In this document: piece after piece, positions 9,794 through 17,902 of the stretch | Numbering within the stretch: the stretch's first letter is position 1 | Layout of the letters: every line of letters starts with the position of its first letter | Assembly (NCBI GenBank): GCA_964215915.1 | Contig: CAXPEB010000047.1 | Coordinates: 29,835 to 93,834, forward strand | DNA: 64,000 bases | Source of the DNA: Bacteroidia bacterium | Lineage (GTDB): Bacteria > Bacteroidota > Bacteroidia > UBA8524 | Direction of reading: 5' to 3' | Position numbers and translations under genes: made by a program | The notes under the pieces: generated by a model | Seen by the model: only the letters and a program-made list of their open reading frames with translations | The model's database searches: none | Told to the model about the DNA's origin: nothing

Positions 9794-12700
9794 TTGCTTA
9801 GCAACGGAATGAAAAACTTACTGATCCTCTTATTACTCTCCTTCCATACCCTGTGTGCCCTGGCCCAACCCGGCACCAACGACAGCACGTTTAACCTTAT
9901 TGATCCTGGCTATTCGAATGGACTCGGACCGGATGATCAGATAAGGTCAGTGGCCCTTCAAAACGACGGAAAAGTACTGATAGGCGGCTATTTCACGCAA
10001 TTCAATGAAAAAACCATCAAGCGGATCGCAAGAATCCATGACGGGGTTCCGGATACTTCCTTCAAAACAGGAAACGGCTTCAATGATTACGTGCAATGTA
10101 TTGTTCTGCAAAGCGACGGCAAAATACTGGTAGGAGGCGACTTCACCTCCTACAACGGCGTGACCCGGAACCGGATCGCCAGACTGAATACCGATGGCAG
10201 CCTGGACATGTCCTTTAACCCCGGTAACGGCCCCAACAGCCTGGTAAGAAGTATCGCCATACAAAGCGACGGAAAAATTGTGATTGCCGGAAATTTCACC
10301 ACGTATAGCGGGACGGGTAGAAGCCGGATAGCACGACTGAACAGCAATGGCTCACTGGACAATTCCTATGACCCCGGTTCAGGCTTCAATAGTGCCGTTT
10401 ACAGCATCGGCATTCAGGCCAATGATAAAATCGTGGCCGTGGGTGCCTTTACGCTTTTTGATGGCACCACACGCGAGCGGGTTGCCCGACTTGAAACCGA
10501 TGGGACGCTTGATTTGTCTTTCTTGCCTGGCTTTGGATTTGATAAGACGGCCTATTCCCTGGCACTCGCTCCCAACGGCAATATTGTGGTCGGCGGAGAC
10601 TTCGATTATTTCAACGGAACGGCCCGCAACCGCATAGCCGTGATTGATTCCGGCGGAACCCTGGCAGGTTCGTTTAACCCCGGTAGTGGCTTTAACTCGA
10701 GCGTTTATTCGCTAAGGGTACAGGCCGATGGAAAAATTCTGGCTGGAGGATCTTTTAGCTCGTATGATGGAAATACCGCCAATAAAATCATTCGGCTGGA
10801 GGCTACGGGCAATGAAGACTCCGGCTTTCATGCCGGATCGGGTTTTGGTGGCAGCGGAGGCAATGTCGTTTACTCCATTCAAGTCCACCCGGATGGAAGA
10901 ATCGTGGCAGGAGGAATTTTCCCGAGCTACAATGGCCAGTCGAGAAATAATGTGGTAAGGTTGTTTTCCGACGGCACTCCCGACTATTCGCTCAACAGGT
11001 ATACGGGTTTCAGCGGAAAGGTAAGAAGTATCGTCGTGCAAAAAGACGGTAAAATACTGGCCGGTGGCGACTTCCGGTTTTATAACGGGGTGGAACGCTC
11101 GGGCATCGCCCGCCTGAACAGCGACGGCACGCTGGATACCGGTTTTGCCGTTGGCACCGGCATTAACTACAATATTGCCTATACCGGTGTTCATTCCCTG
11201 TTGTTGCAGGATGACGGAAAGATACTGGTAGGGGGTGACTTCTTTGACTACAACGGAAGCACGGTAAGCGGTTTGATCCGCTTGCATCCGGACGGAACGC
11301 TGGATACCACTTTCAAGACCGGAACCGGCGTGGGCGCGGGGTCCATTTATCATATGGCACTTCAAAGTGATGGCAAAATCATTATCGGCGGTAGTTTTAA
11401 CTCTTATGGTGGCTCTATCAGCTACAAAATCGCACGGATCCATACGGACGGAAGCAGGGACACCTCCTTCAATACCGGGGTATTTCCATATTCCGGGTTT
11501 GATCAGGATGTTAAGGCGCTTGTTATACAACCCGACGGGAAGATCCTGGTGGGTGGTGGTTTCAGCAGATACCGGAATACCTTTGTCAGCAACCGTATCC
11601 TCAGACTAAACCCGGATGGAAGCCTGGACCCCAACTTTTTGCAAACCAATGGCTTCAGCGGAGGAGGGGTTGAGACAATCGGCCTGCAGGCTGATGGCAG
11701 GATCGTGGTGGGTGGAACATTCACTTCCTTCAACGGCACAGCCAGAAACAAAATGGCAAGGGTGGAATCTGACGGAACACTGGATGCCTCCTTCTATCCC
11801 GGAAGCAATGGCTTTAACGGGACGGTAAGTGAGCTGATCGTGCAGGGCGACGGGAAGATTCTGGCCGCCGGAACATTTACCCAATACAACCTGGTCGATT
11901 ATAAACGTATTATACGACTCAACTCAAACGGAACGGTCGATAACGGGATCGACTTCCATACGGGGTTCCCCGATGATGTAGAGACCATTGCCTTACAGCC
12001 CGATGGGAAAATCCTGGCCGGAGGAGTCTTTACTTCGTTTGATGGCTATGGAAGAAACCGGATTGCCCGTATTAACAACACCTGTGTTCCCAACCTGATC
12101 GTGATTGGCGCTTCTGCCTGCGACAGCTTTGTGTTCAACAACCAAACGTACAAGGCCTCTGGGATTTACCAACAGCAGTTCACCAATGCCTATGGCTGCG
12201 ATTCCACCATTCAGCTTAACCTGACAGTACACGCTTCTAGCGGCAGCAACCTCATAATCACCGCCTGTGATACGTTTGCTTTCCTGGGTCAGCAATACAC
12301 CAGCTCCGGTATTTATACCCATGTGATACCCAACAGCGTCGGTTGCGATTCCACCATTACCCTGGACCTCACCATTAACAACAGCACGTCGCAAAGTATT
12401 ACCACCAGCGCATGCAGCAGCTATATACTGAATGGACAGACGTATACCGCTTCGGGCACTTATGTTCAGATGATGACGAACATGGCGGGTTGTGATTCCA
12501 TTATCACGCTGAATCTGACTATTAACGACGCGGATACGGGTGTAAGCCGCACAGGCCCCAACACTTTGCAGGCTAATGCCATCGGGGCCGTGTATCAGTG
12601 GATTGATTGTGACAATACCACCACCCCAGAAATACCCGGTGCTACCGGCAGGACTTTTACGGCTACCCAGAATGGGCGCTATGCGGTACGCGTGACCGAG

Positions 12701-13003
12701 AATAGCTGCACTGGCACTTCTGCCTGTCATACCATTAATAGTGTAGGTATCGAAGACCCGCTGATCCCGAAGGTGGCTCTTTACCCCAATCCGGCAGGTT
12801 CCACAGTAACTCTGGTGTCCGAGGCCCCGCTGAATGGTGCAGACATCCGGCTGAGAACCATGGACGGCAGGCTGATCGGGGAAGAAACTGCCGTGGAGGG
12901 TTCGGTACATACCCTTGACCTGACTCGCCTGGCTCCCGGCATCTACCTGGTTGAAATAACCCAACAACACAGCGTGCTGCGAATCAAACTTGTGAAGGAG
13001 TAG
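9794..13003 (+). CDS. Delta-60-repeat cell-surface protein with cysteine-containing repeats and a type-A T9SS C-terminal domain
   Basis: 1069 aa with a signal peptide. About 13 tandem repeats carry DGKILVGGDF..YNG..RNRIARLN.DGSLD.SFNPG (delta-60 repeat pattern). Four ~60-aa repeats then have C..F.F.GQ.YT.SGIY......N..GCDS.I.L.LT. The C-terminus ALYPNPAGSTVTLV...GIYLVEI fits a T9SS CTD. Confidence 0.8.
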   Translation: MLSNGMKNLLILLLLSFHTLCALAQPGTNDSTFNLIDPGYSNGLGPDDQIRSVALQNDGKVLIGGYFTQFNEKTIKRIARIHDGVPDTSFKTGNGFNDYVQCIVLQSDGKILVGGDFTSYNGVTRNRIARLNTDGSLDMSFNPGNGPNSLVRSIAIQSDGKIVIAGNFTTYSGTGRSRIARLNSNGSLDNSYDPGSGFNSAVYSIGIQANDKIVAVGAFTLFDGTTRERVARLETDGTLDLSFLPGFGFDKTAYSLALAPNGNIVVGGDFDYFNGTARNRIAVIDSGGTLAGSFNPGSGFNSSVYSLRVQADGKILAGGSFSSYDGNTANKIIRLEATGNEDSGFHAGSGFGGSGGNVVYSIQVHPDGRIVAGGIFPSYNGQSRNNVVRLFSDGTPDYSLNRYTGFSGKVRSIVVQKDGKILAGGDFRFYNGVERSGIARLNSDGTLDTGFAVGTGINYNIAYTGVHSLLLQDDGKILVGGDFFDYNGSTVSGLIRLHPDGTLDTTFKTGTGVGAGSIYHMALQSDGKIIIGGSFNSYGGSISYKIARIHTDGSRDTSFNTGVFPYSGFDQDVKALVIQPDGKILVGGGFSRYRNTFVSNRILRLNPDGSLDPNFLQTNGFSGGGVETIGLQADGRIVVGGTFTSFNGTARNKMARVESDGTLDASFYPGSNGFNGTVSELIVQGDGKILAAGTFTQYNLVDYKRIIRLNSNGTVDNGIDFHTGFPDDVETIALQPDGKILAGGVFTSFDGYGRNRIARINNTCVPNLIVIGASACDSFVFNNQTYKASGIYQQQFTNAYGCDSTIQLNLTVHASSGSNLIITACDTFAFLGQQYTSSGIYTHVIPNSVGCDSTITLDLTINNSTSQSITTSACSSYILNGQTYTASGTYVQMMTNMAGCDSIITLNLTINDADTGVSRTGPNTLQANAIGAVYQWIDCDNTTTPEIPGATGRTFTATQNGRYAVRVTENSCTGTSACHTINSVGIEDPLIPKVALYPNPAGSTVTLVSEAPLNGADIRLRTMDGRLIGEETAVEGSVHTLDLTRLAPGIYLVEITQQHSVLRIKLVKE

Positions 13004-13066: not shown

Positions 13067-14653
13067 CTAAGACCCGAAACTCAATTGAAGGGTATGACCC
13101 GGCGAATGTGGCCCGGTGAGATATCCCTTAAACGGCAATCTGGAATGCATCACCAGAATTCCGCCCTTGGGTATCCGTACCGGAATTTCGGCCCCTTGCT
13201 GAATGAGCAACTCAATCTCGTACGGAGTCAACTCTCTGTGGTGCAAACCCTTTATGATACGCAGGGAGGTTTGTTCATTACGGTTTTCTCTAAGCTGTAT
13301 CCGTATGACCAAAGAATTACGGTCATTCGACAGCTGTTGCCAACCCTTCCTAACTTCCGGAGCACTATAGTAAGGGTTAAACTCAGCCCAAACATGTTCC
13401 GGACTAAGATTAGAACTCTTTAGGATTTGATCGATAGATTCTTTGTGCCACAGGGATTTGGTCAGTTCTGCCAGCTTCTCCGGCGGTATACCCGGGTTTT
13501 CGGCACAAAGCCTATGGGCCTGACTCCTTAAATGACGGCATTCGCGCTCTGTGTAAACCTGTTCCAACACATGATACCCCTTCTTTGCCAGGATGGAAGG
13601 AAGTTTTTGAATAACCTCTCCATTCATTTCCATCCGGTAATGATTCAGGCCCGCTTCAATCCGATCAAACAAGCGCTTGCGAAGCCTGGAGGGTTCCAAA
13701 ACCCGAATAGTCTCTCCCAATCCCAGTAACACCTTCTCCAGTTCAAAGTTGTGCTGCACCTGCATTTCGAAGATCATCCCAAAATGATTTCGTTCCACCA
13801 ACTTCTGACTGGCATGCAGAGGCTTGGTAAGCAGATAGGGCGCTGATTCCATTGTGGCAAAGAAGCGAACCGTTTCAGGAATAGCCTGCGGGCTTACCGT
13901 TACACCGATGACATTTTTAAAATAGTTCCGGAAAAAGTCCTCTTCCTCTAACTGCGACTCCTCATCCATAATTTTAACACCCTCCATCCTATCCAGGGCC
14001 AGTAACTGATAGCTTCGGCTAGTTTCTCTGTGACCCAATACAAACCAACGGTTCTGGTACTCCTTCAATAGCCCGGGATGAAACAAGATATTTTGAGCTG
14101 CTCTGGCTTTGAAAGACTGGTAGGTAATCAGAGTCTGTTTCTTGTTCATTATTGCGTTATACAATACTTCCATCCAGTGCAGGCCCTTCAGATTTTCGTT
14201 TGACTCAAGATCTATAATGGGTCTACCCTTGGTGCGGGAAACCTGTACTTTGTCTTCGAGTCGCTGTACGATTCCTCCCAGATCTTCAAAATGAGAAAAC
14301 CCTTTAAACTGCTTGAGCAAATTGACGGCCTCGGTCAGTTTGTTCAAGTCCTGATCAGTTAGCGGGATATTGGTGATGGAATATTCAGGGTCTTCGTAGC
14401 TGTAGTATTTCTTGTCTGTGATGATGATCGGCGCGTTATATCCCAGTTTTTCACTTCGCATCATCTGGATGTCCATCTGTACGGTGCGCCGGCTTACTCC
14501 TTTATCAATTCCTTCGAATTCGTATAGCGCCTCGGAACAAGCATCGATAAGATCCTCAAGAGTCCATTTTCGGTACCTGTTTTTCAGGCAGTTATCGATG
14601 GTGGTATAGCGCAGGAGAGCATTGCGATTAACGGGCATGGTGAAAATTTTCAA
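13067..14653 (-). CDS. HTH-WYL-WCX family transcriptional regulator with an additional ~190-aa C-terminal domain
   Basis: 528 aa. The layout is an N-terminal winged-HTH region, then a WYL-type domain (LITYQSFKARAAQNILFHPGLLKEYQNRWFVLGHRE), then a WCX-like segment (IRVLEPSRLRKRLFDRIEAG). The unassigned C-terminal part contains WHKE and ...ILVMHSRLPF motifs. Confidence 0.75.
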   Translation of the reverse strand: MKIFTMPVNRNALLRYTTIDNCLKNRYRKWTLEDLIDACSEALYEFEGIDKGVSRRTVQMDIQMMRSEKLGYNAPIIITDKKYYSYEDPEYSITNIPLTDQDLNKLTEAVNLLKQFKGFSHFEDLGGIVQRLEDKVQVSRTKGRPIIDLESNENLKGLHWMEVLYNAIMNKKQTLITYQSFKARAAQNILFHPGLLKEYQNRWFVLGHRETSRSYQLLALDRMEGVKIMDEESQLEEEDFFRNYFKNVIGVTVSPQAIPETVRFFATMESAPYLLTKPLHASQKLVERNHFGMIFEMQVQHNFELEKVLLGLGETIRVLEPSRLRKRLFDRIEAGLNHYRMEMNGEVIQKLPSILAKKGYHVLEQVYTERECRHLRSQAHRLCAENPGIPPEKLAELTKSLWHKESIDQILKSSNLSPEHVWAEFNPYYSAPEVRKGWQQLSNDRNSLVIRIQLRENRNEQTSLRIIKGLHHRELTPYEIELLIQQGAEIPVRIPKGGILVMHSRLPFKGYLTGPHSPGHTLQLSFGS

Positions 14654-14945
14654 AAAAATCCGAAAAAGAATTTAACTGCGCAAAAAGACTGCGCAGTTGC
14701 TCCTAACCTTTGAATTGTGAAACACGAACAAAAAGGAATTCGGCCCCGCTCTTCAAATTGAAGAGTGGGTTGCGAAAAAGGAGGTTTCACTTGTTCATTG
14801 ACATATCCGCATAGTGATATAAAGATCTTTCCGAAAGGAAAGCGCAGATGTTTTCAGGTACGGACCTGCTTCCGGTTTCTGTATAGCCGGAAAGTGCTCT
14901 AAGGAGTATGCTACTTGTCCTGAAATTGATTTGTGTCCAACGCGT

Positions 14946-15047
14946 GTCGGGGGTTCGATTCCCTCTCCTATAGTTTAGGGTAGCTCAGTTGGTAGAGCAG
15001 CGATGTAACGCAGGTTCGAATCCTGCACTCAGTTTTGGTCTGAGTTT
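14946..15047 (+). ncRNA. tRNA-like element that is not a canonical tRNA; candidate Y-RNA-like (YrlA-type) tRNA mimic
   Basis: The first T-arm-like segment is GGGGG-TTCGATT-CCCTC (14949-14965). A canonical D-arm GCTC-AGTTGGTA-GAGC follows at 14983-14998. Only 11 nt later comes a perfect T-arm GCAGG-TTCGAAT-CCTGC (15010-15026). A hairpin ACTCAG-TTTTGGT-CTGAGT plus TTTG follows at 15027-15048. No anticodon stem-loop fits, because the D-stem and T-stem are separated by 11 nt where about 23 are needed. No 7-bp acceptor stem can be paired. Confidence 0.4.
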
Positions 15048-15351
15048 GATTAATGGTTGAATCAACATCCCATGGACTCCAAATCCATCACCGGGACCGC
15101 CTGTCCCCAAATAAGGCAATTGTATCCGGGCGGGAAAAGAGAAACAGAGCGGTGCTTCGGCACCAATCACGGAGTTCCGGGCCGGAAACGGCAGATACCG
15201 CAGGACGACGCGTTTTTCAGGTGATCGCATCCATTCCAGAATGCATTCGGTTGCAGTAAAAATGCCGGTGACTGCTCAAGCAGGTTCCCGCCCCGAAAAC
15301 CGGTTTCTCTTTCCCCCGCCCTATTAAATGAAAATGTAAAAGTAGATTGAT

Positions 15352-16449
15352 ATGAAAAAAGTAATCGTAACACCGGGTCTGGTAGGCTTGGTTTACAAAA
15401 ACGGAAAAACAGAACGTGTATTGACTGAAGGAACCTACTGGATATCCTTGTGGTCTGAAGTGCGCATGTTTGCGATGAACCTGGCATTTCAACCGAAAGA
15501 GAGTCTGGAAGTAGCCTTGCAATCGGAAGTTTTGCAACCCTACCTTGAAATAGTAGAGGTGAAAGAAGGAGAAATCGCTCTGCGTTATGAAAACAACCGT
15601 TTTGTCGGGGTTCTTTTTGCCGGTAAGCATGCTTACTGGAAAGGACTGATCGATTACCGTTTCATCATCGACAATATGGAAAACTGCCGTATTCGTCCGG
15701 AAATCGAAAGAAACATTTTGCGCTACCCGGCCTTTGGGTCATTAACCCGGACATTCCGTGTTGACTCATACTGCAAGGCAGTGTTAAGTATAGAAGGAGA
15801 GGAAGACAAGATTCTTGAACCGGGAGAATACCTGTTCTGGAACAACCGTAAGGTTATCTCCGTTATTCCGGTGGATATGCGTTCTCAGATGATGGAAGTT
15901 TCCGGACAGGAACTGCTTACCCGCGATAAAGCAAGCCTTCGGTTAAGTTTATTTGCTTCCATCCGGGTAAATGATATCCGCAAAGCGGTATTGGAAAATA
16001 CAGCCTACTCCAAACAGGTATACACCATCCTGCAATTGGCCATTCGTGAATTTGTCGGGACCAAAAGCCTGGATGAAATCCTGGAGAACAAGGAGATGAT
16101 TTCCGACTACGTGATGAAAAACAGCAAAGCTGCCATTGCGGAAACCGGAGTAGAGTTAAGCAGCTGCGGGGTTCGTGACATCATCCTTCCGGGAGAAATG
16201 CGCGAGATCTTTAATAAGGTGCTGATTGCGGAGAAACAAGCCGCAGCCAACGTAATCATGCGCCGGGAAGAAACCGCATCCACCCGTTCCCTGTTGAACA
16301 CCGCCAAACTGATGGAAGAAAACGAAGTGCTCTTCCGTCTGAAGGAAATGGAATACGTGGAACGTATCGCCGAAAAAATCGGGAACCTGAGCGTTACCGG
16401 TAACGGAACCCTGATCTCACAGTTAAAAGAGATTTTTGTAAATAAGTAG
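15352..16449 (+). CDS. SPFH/band-7 (stomatin/prohibitin-like) domain protein, soluble, co-operonic with rtcB
   Basis: 365 aa. The C-terminal two thirds show an SPFH core pattern (VDMRSQMMEVSGQELLTRDKASLRLSLFASIRVNDIRKAV...CGVRDIILPGEMREIF) followed by a coiled coil. There is no hydrophobic N-terminal anchor. The N-terminal region looks like partial SPFH-like duplications. The stop lies 17 bp before rtcB. Confidence 0.75.
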   Translation: MKKVIVTPGLVGLVYKNGKTERVLTEGTYWISLWSEVRMFAMNLAFQPKESLEVALQSEVLQPYLEIVEVKEGEIALRYENNRFVGVLFAGKHAYWKGLIDYRFIIDNMENCRIRPEIERNILRYPAFGSLTRTFRVDSYCKAVLSIEGEEDKILEPGEYLFWNNRKVISVIPVDMRSQMMEVSGQELLTRDKASLRLSLFASIRVNDIRKAVLENTAYSKQVYTILQLAIREFVGTKSLDEILENKEMISDYVMKNSKAAIAETGVELSSCGVRDIILPGEMREIFNKVLIAEKQAAANVIMRREETASTRSLLNTAKLMEENEVLFRLKEMEYVERIAEKIGNLSVTGNGTLISQLKEIFVNK

Positions 16450-16465
16450 CGGCTGGGGACCACAC

Positions 16466-17902
16466 TTGGTGGTCCCCATTATGATTGAATTCATGACTAT
16501 TACAAGCGAAGAACTGATAAAATGGAATATTCCAAAAGGCCCGGAATTCGGAATCTGCCTTGATATTTTGAATGCTCTGGATGAAAAATCCTGGAGCAAG
16601 AAGTCTGCGAAACAGGAAATCGATAAAATCTTATCAAACCCGGAAACAAAAAGTCATCCGGCATTTAATGCCCTGAAACAAGTGGTAATACAACGCGAGG
16701 CCAATAAAACCATTGCCGTGGCTGAAAAGGCAAGCAGTTATACGATTTATGGAGAAGAAGGAATAGAAGCGGGAGCTCTGAAGCAAATGGATACTGTGAT
16801 GCGTCTTCCCATTTCCCGTGCCGGAGCATTGATGCCAGACGCACACCAGGGTTACGGTTTACCCATTGGCGGAGTATTGGCTACGGAAAACACCATTATC
16901 CCTTACGGAGTGGGTGTGGATATAGGATGCCGTATGTGCCTGAGCATCTTCGATATCCCGGCAATCCATATAGAACAAAACCGGGAACGTCTGAAAACAG
17001 TTCTAAACCGGAGCTCCAAATTCGGCAAAGCTGTATTCCAAAAACCGCAGGATCATGAAGTACTGGCCAGCCCCTTGTTTAATGAGATTCCATTATTAAG
17101 GGCCCTTCAGGAAAAAGCAGCCAGGCAGATAGGCAGCTCCGGAGGAGGAAACCATTTTGTGGAATTTGGGATATGTGAAATAGTGGATCAAGACAACGAA
17201 TTGGGAATTCAGCCAGGCCAATACTTGTCATTACTCAGCCATTCCGGATCACGCGGACTCGGAGCCAGCATTGCCGGGCATTATACCCGGCTTGCCAAAA
17301 CACAGACCAGGTTGCCGGATGAGCTAAAACACCTGGCATGGCTTAATCTTGATAGTGAGGCGGGACAGGAATACTGGCTGGCAATGAACCTGGCAGGAGA
17401 CTATGCCAGCGCCTGTCATCATCAGATACACGCCAAAGTTGCCCGTGACTTTCAGCTGGAACCTTTGGCCATGGTTGAAAACCACCACAATTTTGCCTGG
17501 AAAGAAACCCTTGAAGATGGAAAGGAATACATTATTCACCGAAAGGGAGCTACACCGGCCGGAAAAGGGGTCTTAGGAATAATTCCTGGCTCCATGACTG
17601 CGCCTGGCTTTATTGTACGTGGGAAAGGGCTCTCAGACTCGTTGAATTCCGCCTCCCACGGAGCAGGCCGGGCCATGTCACGTACCCAAGCAAAGAACTC
17701 ATTGAATGCAAAGGATATGGTTAAACATCTCCAGGACCAGGGAGTTGATTTAATTGGTTCAGGCTTGGATGAGGCACCAATGGCGTATAAAAACATCCAT
17801 GACGTAATGGAAGCACAGAAAGACCTGATAGAAGTGCTGGGAACCTTCCTTCCCAAAGTGGTTCGAATGTGCGGCGACGAAGGTTTCCGGGAAGTGGATT
17901 GA
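16466..17902 (+). CDS. rtcB: RNA-splicing ligase RtcB (3-prime-phosphate / 5-prime-OH RNA ligase)
   Basis: 478 aa with the conserved RtcB motifs MPDAHQGYGLPIGGV, GGGNHFVEFG, HNFAWKE and HGAGRAMSR. A ~100-aa N-terminal extension is not typical of the core enzyme. Several alternative start codons fall in the first 10 codons. Confidence 0.85.
   Translation: MVVPIMIEFMTITSEELIKWNIPKGPEFGICLDILNALDEKSWSKKSAKQEIDKILSNPETKSHPAFNALKQVVIQREANKTIAVAEKASSYTIYGEEGIEAGALKQMDTVMRLPISRAGALMPDAHQGYGLPIGGVLATENTIIPYGVGVDIGCRMCLSIFDIPAIHIEQNRERLKTVLNRSSKFGKAVFQKPQDHEVLASPLFNEIPLLRALQEKAARQIGSSGGGNHFVEFGICEIVDQDNELGIQPGQYLSLLSHSGSRGLGASIAGHYTRLAKTQTRLPDELKHLAWLNLDSEAGQEYWLAMNLAGDYASACHHQIHAKVARDFQLEPLAMVENHHNFAWKETLEDGKEYIIHRKGATPAGKGVLGIIPGSMTAPGFIVRGKGLSDSLNSASHGAGRAMSRTQAKNSLNAKDMVKHLQDQGVDLIGSGLDEAPMAYKNIHDVMEAQKDLIEVLGTFLPKVVRMCGDEGFREVD

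Follow-up and report, generated by a model that had tools for sequence, protein, structure and literature searches.

A WYL regulator gene beside an RNA repair operon

The 64,000-nucleotide stretch of Bacteroidia bacterium DNA analyzed here (the window, from contig CAXPEB010000047.1; all coordinates are window positions) codes on its minus strand for a WYL-type transcriptional regulator that carries a C-terminal tail of predicted dioxygenase fold, in which all four catalytic or cofactor-binding residues are replaced. The gene (13067-14653) is a single uninterrupted open reading frame (ORF), stop codon included, of 528 aa counted from the TTG at 14653, and residue numbers below follow that count. 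The ORF-list start at TTG is probably wrong and the true start is probably the ATG at 14638, giving a protein of 523 aa, because Met6 and Pro7 are shared by all 50 homologues compared, the database protein P0001 (100% identical to the window regulator) is 523 aa long, and a conserved palindrome then lies at its family-typical distance from the start. Divergent from the regulator, on the plus strand, is an operon whose first gene codes for a Band-7/SPFH protein (15352-16449; Pfam PF01145, E 7.7e-26), followed by a gene for an RtcB RNA ligase (16466-17902; PF01139, E 1.5e-82), in agreement with an earlier note on this DNA that had placed the regulator next to an RNA repair operon. The neighboring ORFs scanned around this operon include no Ro60/TROVE gene, and no RtcA or archease was noticed among them.

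The regulator has the domain order winged helix-turn-helix (wHTH), WYL, and WCX, a long linker helix, and a PhyH-fold domain of ~170 aa, all coded on the minus strand. The wHTH DNA-binding domain (approximately residues 6-95; 14369-14638) is assigned from AlphaFold secondary structure, Foldseek matches, and conservation; it is the best conserved part of the regulator family among 50 homologues, and no Pfam HTH model matched the N-terminus. The WYL domain (residues 161-228; 13970-14173) scores above the Pfam gathering score (PF13280, 37 bits; cutoff, 21.8) and matches the PADLOC WYL model (E 7.8e-19), with no other part of the regulator recognized by PADLOC. The WCX domain (residues 261-334; 13652-13873) is likewise above its gathering score (PF25583, 34.4 bits; cutoff, 23.9) and aligns with the WCX domain of DriD. 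The AlphaFold models then show a long helix linking WCX to the tail (residues 322-358; 13580-13690), after which the PhyH-fold pseudo-dioxygenase domain (residues 359-528; 13070-13579) is assigned from Pfam, AlphaFold, Foldseek, and family profile results. The ~190 residues past WCX (coded by 13070-13648) exceed the usual WYL architecture, as the earlier note had pointed out, and the peptides that it quoted are all present, namely IRVLEPSRLRKRLFDRIEAG (residues 316-335), SLWHKESIDQ (400-409), HVWAEFNPYYSAPEV (420-434), and ILVMHSRLPFKGYLTGPHSPGH (499-520). The full-length AlphaFold model, built on a 50-sequence alignment, has a predicted local distance difference test score (pLDDT) of 81.6, with tail residues at 85 to 92; the tail is compact and confidently modeled (pLDDT, 86). 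NCBIfam has no named family for the regulator, nor for its intact or stand-alone relatives.

The earlier note had also raised the prospect that the ORF is an artifact, in which a sequencing or frame error has merged two genes, here one for a regulator and one for a PhyH-like protein. Stand-alone PhyH relatives of ~235 aa do exist, but we reject this explanation, whose probability we regard as negligible. The ORF is uninterrupted, the identical P0001 comes from an independent database contig, the same fusion occurs as full-length co-linear homologues in dozens of genomes, and the predicted helix at residues 322 to 358 runs continuously across the junction.

The PhyH-type tail and its catalytic columns

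The suggestion that the tail resembles PhyH-type dioxygenases has been borne out by the profile searches and structure comparisons that had been proposed to examine it. The tail alone scores 21.3 bits against Pfam PF05721 (PhyH; E = 3.7e-4), just under the gathering cutoff of 22, and the full protein scores 16.7 bits; the closest relatives, P0001 to P0005, likewise carry no PF05721 call. A profile of the family matches human PhyH, AviO1, SyrB2, and EctD in the PDB, and Foldseek matches the predicted tail structure to the PhyH-family hydroxylases proline hydroxylase H11, PtlH, and EvdO2. The modeled tail adopts the PhyH-type double-stranded beta-helix (jelly-roll) fold. A single-sequence PDB search returned one spurious match and nothing else, and a tail-only homologue search was empty, which we ascribe to the sensitivity limit of the word index, as the full-length query found thousands of homologues.

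The residues that would be needed for catalysis are readily located in the longer relatives. Those of ~575 aa have the motif WHQD, then LLLHAS, and then RRVIHLEF 11 to 12 residues past the distal His, and the family profile alignment places WHQD on the HQD of PhyH and LLLHAS/RR on its PLLIHGS...R, with the His...Arg pair also aligned to AviO1. The catalytic columns of human PhyH we take to be His175, Asp177, His264, and Arg275. In alignments with relatives, the window counterpart of WHQD, which holds the HxD iron ligands, is W438-Q439-Q440-L441 (13331-13342, minus strand); W438 and Q440 are invariant across the family, and the HxD columns are occupied by Q439 and L441. The alignments and the family profile place F508 (13130-13132, minus strand) where the family has the distal His that binds iron, and G519-H520 (13094-13099, minus strand) in the columns of the family RR, which includes the 2-oxoglutarate (2OG)-binding Arg. 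The window protein therefore has Q439, L441, and F508 where an HxD/E...H facial triad would stand, and G519/H520 in place of the Arg that would hold the 2OG C5-carboxylate. It also has a deletion of ~30 aa directly after the HxD strand, relative to the ~575-aa relatives, and a second deletion of ~10 residues earlier in the tail.

These differences set the window protein apart from most of its family. Among the 120 best database matches, 88 have WYL and WCX domains together with the full WH-D-H-RR set, the corresponding window residues being WQ-L-F-GH, and the remaining matches are degenerate in several different ways. The closest relatives carry other substitutions (WQGV-GN, WSGV-GN, and WQSH-SN). 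The tail descends from a PhyH-type Fe(II)/2OG dioxygenase module that is kept intact in most relatives, and as judged from its residues the window copy is a pseudo-dioxygenase. Fusion of such a domain to a WYL regulator had been thought unusual in the earlier note, which does not hold given how common the architecture is. The proposal of an enzyme domain fused to the regulator stands as far as the dioxygenase fold is concerned, but a ligand-modifying activity of the window copy is unlikely because the triad and Arg columns are substituted and ~30 aa after the HxD strand are deleted. The window gene should not carry a dioxygenase annotation.

A different set of ligands was suggested in the earlier note, in which an HxE...H arrangement (H403/E405, H420, and H503) loosely resembled the iron-binding triad. 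These residues lie off the triad columns: H403 and E405 fall on a helix that is not part of the jelly-roll core (family consensus LxNxNL), H420 varies even among the nearest relatives, and H503 aligns with a non-ligand His in FFHPLLIH of PhyH. The tail might nonetheless be a working Fe(II)/2OG dioxygenase with non-canonical ligands, such as H403-x-E405 with H503, that modifies or senses a small molecule or nucleic acid. The predicted jelly-roll fold is that of a dioxygenase, intact relatives are probably active enzymes, and H403, E405, H471, and H503 are kept in four close relatives (the query clade), all of which would be in keeping with activity. However, the four canonical columns are replaced (by Q, L, F, and G/H), and differently so among the closest relatives, the segment following HxD and the 2OG-anchoring Arg are missing, and the proposed ligands are on the outer helix or at the non-ligand His. 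We consider a working enzyme to be very improbable.

Tail states, constraint, and shared upstream elements

Relatives of the regulator are abundant. A full-length homologue search returned 5681 matches, of which the four closest are 69 to 76% identical, ~520 aa long, and without a Pfam PhyH call. The bulk are 43 to 47% identical over 94 to 100% of the query, ~575 to 580 aa long, and annotated as WYL+WCX+PhyH, with some automatically named "YafY/ectoine hydroxylase-related dioxygenase" or "phytanoyl-CoA dioxygenase family protein." Relatives are present in at least 587 species genomes (in a scan of one genome per species), and the record titles are nearly all Bacteroidota, including Cytophagales, Flavobacteriales, Saprospiraceae/Chitinophagales, Sphingobacteriales, and Marinilabiliales, plus Balneola. 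The WYL regulators, the PhyH enzymes, and the Band-7/tRNA-like/RtcB neighborhood are each known, and automated annotation already shows the WYL-PhyH fusion. Our literature search found no account of a WYL-PhyH or WYL-dioxygenase regulator, with Burroughs and Aravind 2016 represented through a preprint that cites it.

We compared 85 loci, a sample that includes one duplicate pair. The tail is intact in 38, degenerate in 17, and absent in 30. The extra domain noted in the window regulator recurs among other WYL proteins and is not rare. Divergent RtcB and/or Band-7 genes are found in 52 of the 66 loci whose upstream sequence spans 5 kb or more (30/34 with intact, 7/9 with degenerate, and 15/23 with no tail), and in the initial individual look-ups RtcB lay upstream of the regulator at four of five loci. 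The tail-less orthologues are ~340 aa long and 52 to 58% identical over the shared part. A hidden Markov model of the tail matches 52 of the 85 locus proteins. In a neighbor-joining tree of the N-terminal part, which is rough and without support values, intact, degenerate, and absent tails are interleaved, which suggests repeated tail degeneration and loss. We conclude that the regulator is a member of an orthologous group, found across Bacteroidota, that is dedicated to a divergent operon of a tRNA-like noncoding RNA, Band-7/SPFH, and RtcB.

The degenerate tail of the window regulator is under relaxed yet present constraint. In codon comparisons with L003 and L006, the two closest genomes compared at the DNA level, synonymous divergence (dS) is saturated, yet the tail ORF stays intact. 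Nonsynonymous divergence (dN) is 0.40 to 0.49 in the tail and 0.14 in the N-terminal 330 codons; dS saturation precludes a dN/dS ratio. Tail identity within the query clade is 47 to 63%, compared with a mean of 67% (range, 53 to 80%) for intact-tail pairs of similar N-terminal divergence (80 to 85% identity), and all sampled query-clade members keep the tail reading frame.

Several of these features could be read as signs of a functionless remnant that decays toward loss and contributes nothing to regulation. The catalytic residues are gone, there are two deletions, tail dN is ~3 times that of the N-terminal part, and tail identity is at or under the low end of that of intact-clade pairs; moreover, ~340-aa tail-less orthologues are linked to the same operon type, and the three tail states are interleaved on the tree. 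We nevertheless think a pure remnant unlikely. A neutral stretch of 190 codons would have gathered stops or frameshifts, but the frame is open in all sampled clade members despite saturated synonymous divergence, 47 to 63% tail identity is kept, and the AlphaFold tail is compact (pLDDT, 86).

The PhyH module also occurs in other settings. A library-wide search with the tail profile found 3201 related cluster representatives, many of them stand-alone PhyH proteins of ~235 aa, and in a few proteins the family HTH is joined straight to PhyH with neither WYL nor WCX (P0131, 402 aa; P0170, 387 aa). RtcB is absent from the two HTH-PhyH variant contexts examined. The gene of one such variant, at locus L088, does not translate to its database protein; it could be a pseudogene, or the gene may have been called differently. 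The existence of these variants, together with retention of the tail under constraint, raises the idea that the PhyH-fold domain rather than WYL is the principal sensor, acting as a non-catalytic ligand-binding pseudoenzyme. This is quite unlikely, as the WYL domain is far better conserved and has many invariant residues, tail-less orthologues keep the RtcB linkage, and the HTH-PhyH variants that were examined are not beside RtcB, with one of them not translating cleanly.

The region between the divergent genes contains two conserved elements. The first is a perfect palindrome, TGCGCA-N7-TGCGCA (TGCGCAAAAAGACTGCGCA; 14677-14695), ~40 nt upstream of the ATG at 14638, which is the sole copy in the window at up to one mismatch. 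Its consensus, TRCGCA-N7-TGCGYA (TGCGCAGTCTTTTTGCGCA), is found in the 150 nt preceding the regulator gene at 58 of the 85 loci (up to two mismatches), with a chance expectation of ~0.009 per locus and a typical distance from the regulator start of ~40 nt. The palindrome is invariant in L003 and L006, and its positions 2 and 18 co-vary among loci (G...C to A...T). We regard the palindrome as the leading candidate operator of the regulator. The palindrome spacer resembles what we take to be the Bacteroidetes -7 promoter box; a sigma-70 promoter scan was empty, and the sigma-70 consensus is not expected to fit Bacteroidota.

The second element is a conserved noncoding block upstream of Band-7 (14700-15175, plus strand), delineated from a three-genome alignment, Rfam, and a covariance model. 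When the window is aligned with L003 and L006, the ~700-nt intergenic region has a mean column identity of 84%; in the conserved block 54 to 84% of columns are the same in each genome, while synonymous sites of the regulator gene are saturated. The sequence from 14654 to ~15175 is near-invariant in the three genomes, with the flanking proteins just 70 to 80% identical. Within the block is a tRNA-like module (14923-15031, plus strand) that matches Rfam YrlA with 43.4 bits (E 2.8e-8), under the gathering score, and comprises a T-arm (GGGGGUUCGAUUCCCUC), a D-arm (UAGCUCAGUUGGUAGAGC), and a second T-arm (GCAGGUUCGAAUCCUGC). With a covariance model (R1), the module turns up at ~40 of 83 other loci, in every case on the strand of the operon. 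An ARAGORN scan of the intergenic region yielded no tRNA, and Rfam gave nothing above gathering score in the entire 64-kb window. The module is probably the predicted "b7a-tRNA" (Band-7-associated tRNA), as that element is described in bioRxiv 10.1101/312249, which cites the association of Band-7, a tRNA-like RNA, and RtcB as a prediction of Burroughs and Aravind 2016. The conserved block, at ~400 to 500 nt, is far longer than a tRNA.

Directly downstream of the regulator, on the other strand (9794-13003, plus), is a gene for a 1069-aa secreted protein with ~13 DUF5122 beta-propeller repeats and a type IX secretion system (T9SS) C-terminal sorting domain, which confirms that the DNA is from a member of Bacteroidota.

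Proposed mechanism and comparison with known systems

In Proteobacteria, RtcB operons are controlled by the CARF protein RtcR; to our knowledge, little has been established about RtcB operon control outside this group. We consider it probable that the window protein is a one-component wHTH-WYL-WCX regulator of the divergent RtcB RNA repair operon, sensing nucleic acid and bearing a non-catalytic accessory tail. By analogy, a regulator dimer would bind TGCGCA-N7-TGCGCA in the promoter region common to the two divergent transcription units, ~40 nt ahead of the regulator start, and the WYL domain would sense damaged or single-stranded nucleic acid, most plausibly RNA fragments, in a role functionally analogous to that of the CARF domain of RtcR. 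The regulator would respond by switching the RtcB operon, and its own gene, on or off. The pseudo-dioxygenase tail would take part without chemistry and be at most a structural, oligomerization, or allosteric accessory; it has been dispensable in evolution, because ~340-aa tail-less orthologues serve the same type of operon.

We note, however, that several points weigh against this interpretation or parts of it. What the WYL domain would bind (RNA or DNA) and whether the protein would act as an activator or a repressor are both assigned by analogy. The tail may hold a non-canonical binding site, and H403, E405, H471, and H503 are conserved within the query clade. An RNA hairpin or a terminator-like element is another possible identity for the palindrome, which a scan scored as a terminator-like hairpin of the minus strand and whose G/A...C/T covariation is compatible with both views. 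The tree behind repeated tail degeneration is an unsupported neighbor-joining tree. Finally, the intact WYL-PhyH regulator at a Pontibacter chinhatensis locus (L002, 1-5746) adjoins a non-RtcB operon, divergent from the regulator, that codes for DUF5682, MoxR-like AAA_5, and DUF5691 proteins; the regulator family is therefore not tied exclusively to RNA repair.

A broader proposal concerns the majority of the family with intact tails, which, from their retained residues, are probably active enzymes. In these an active PhyH-type dioxygenase would be wired into a WYL RNA repair regulator that senses nucleic acid, with the window protein a pseudoenzyme derivative that keeps an allosteric or oligomerization role. 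We hold this whole scenario to be doubtful. If it is true, the dioxygenase could feed in an additional signal (the status of O2, Fe(II), or 2OG, or oxidative stress), or could chemically process or terminate the bound signal, and these proteins would amount to a novel type of one-component regulator, coupled to an enzyme, for responding to RNA damage. The series of intact, dead, and absent tails is a natural experiment on the contribution of an enzyme domain to a WYL sensor. The regulator with its conserved palindromic site, the tRNA-like RNA, and the Band-7-RtcB operon together define a Bacteroidota-wide alternative to RtcR control, and the question of regulator, operator, and ligand is testable in culturable relatives, including Fulvivirga, Reichenbachiella, Lacinutrix, and Algibacter.

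The N-terminal two-thirds of the regulator resembles known WYL transcription factors in predicted structure, with full-length Foldseek matches to DriD, PafBC, BrxR, and CapW (E 2.5e-13 to 1e-6). The best structural matches are DriD of Caulobacter and PafBC of actinobacteria (Foldseek E 2.5e-13 to 9e-9), which are wHTH-WYL-WCX activators of like domain order and fold. The match to full-length DriD extends over ~345 aligned columns (E 2.5e-13), and the family profile aligns with DriD in WCX alone (E 3e-6). DriD and PafBC differ in being ~320 to 330 aa long with nothing after WCX, in having ~14% sequence identity to the regulator, and in being responsive to single-stranded DNA (ssDNA) and controlling DNA damage regulons rather than an RtcB operon. 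Sensing of ssDNA is a reported property of the WYL domains of DriD, PafBC, and CapW (PMC9186387, PMC11804915, PMC11662680). CapW and BrxR, the WYL repressors of CBASS and BREX systems, are homodimeric wHTH-WYL-WCX proteins whose binding site is an inverted repeat in the promoter region next to the system that they control. The palindrome upstream of the window regulator fits this pattern. CapW and BrxR differ in controlling phage defense operons, in their size (~290 aa), and in having no C-terminal enzyme-like domain.

The tail differs from PhyH-type dioxygenases (PF05721, including human PhyH, EctD, proline hydroxylase H11, SnoK, and AviO1) in its missing HxD, distal His, and Arg, its ~30-aa deletion, its sub-cutoff Pfam score, and its fusion to a transcription factor. 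The closest functional analogue of the whole system is RtcR, a CARF-sigma54 AAA+-HTH protein of Proteobacteria that is divergent from an RtcB operon (rtcBA or rsr-yrlBA-rtcBA) with a tRNA-like Y RNA. The likeness is functional only, as the architecture of RtcR is unrelated to that of the window regulator, which falls outside the RtcR family and in which Pfam and NCBIfam scans found no CARF or sigma54-interacting AAA+ domain. RtcR is activated by damaged tRNA fragments (PMC7790460). The divergent operon in the window has the same composition as the Band-7/b7a-tRNA/RtcB neighborhood, as far as this is given in bioRxiv 10.1101/312249, and it has been proposed that WYL and CARF transcription factors sense RNA ends and regulate RNA repair (PMC9503650, PMC4012209).

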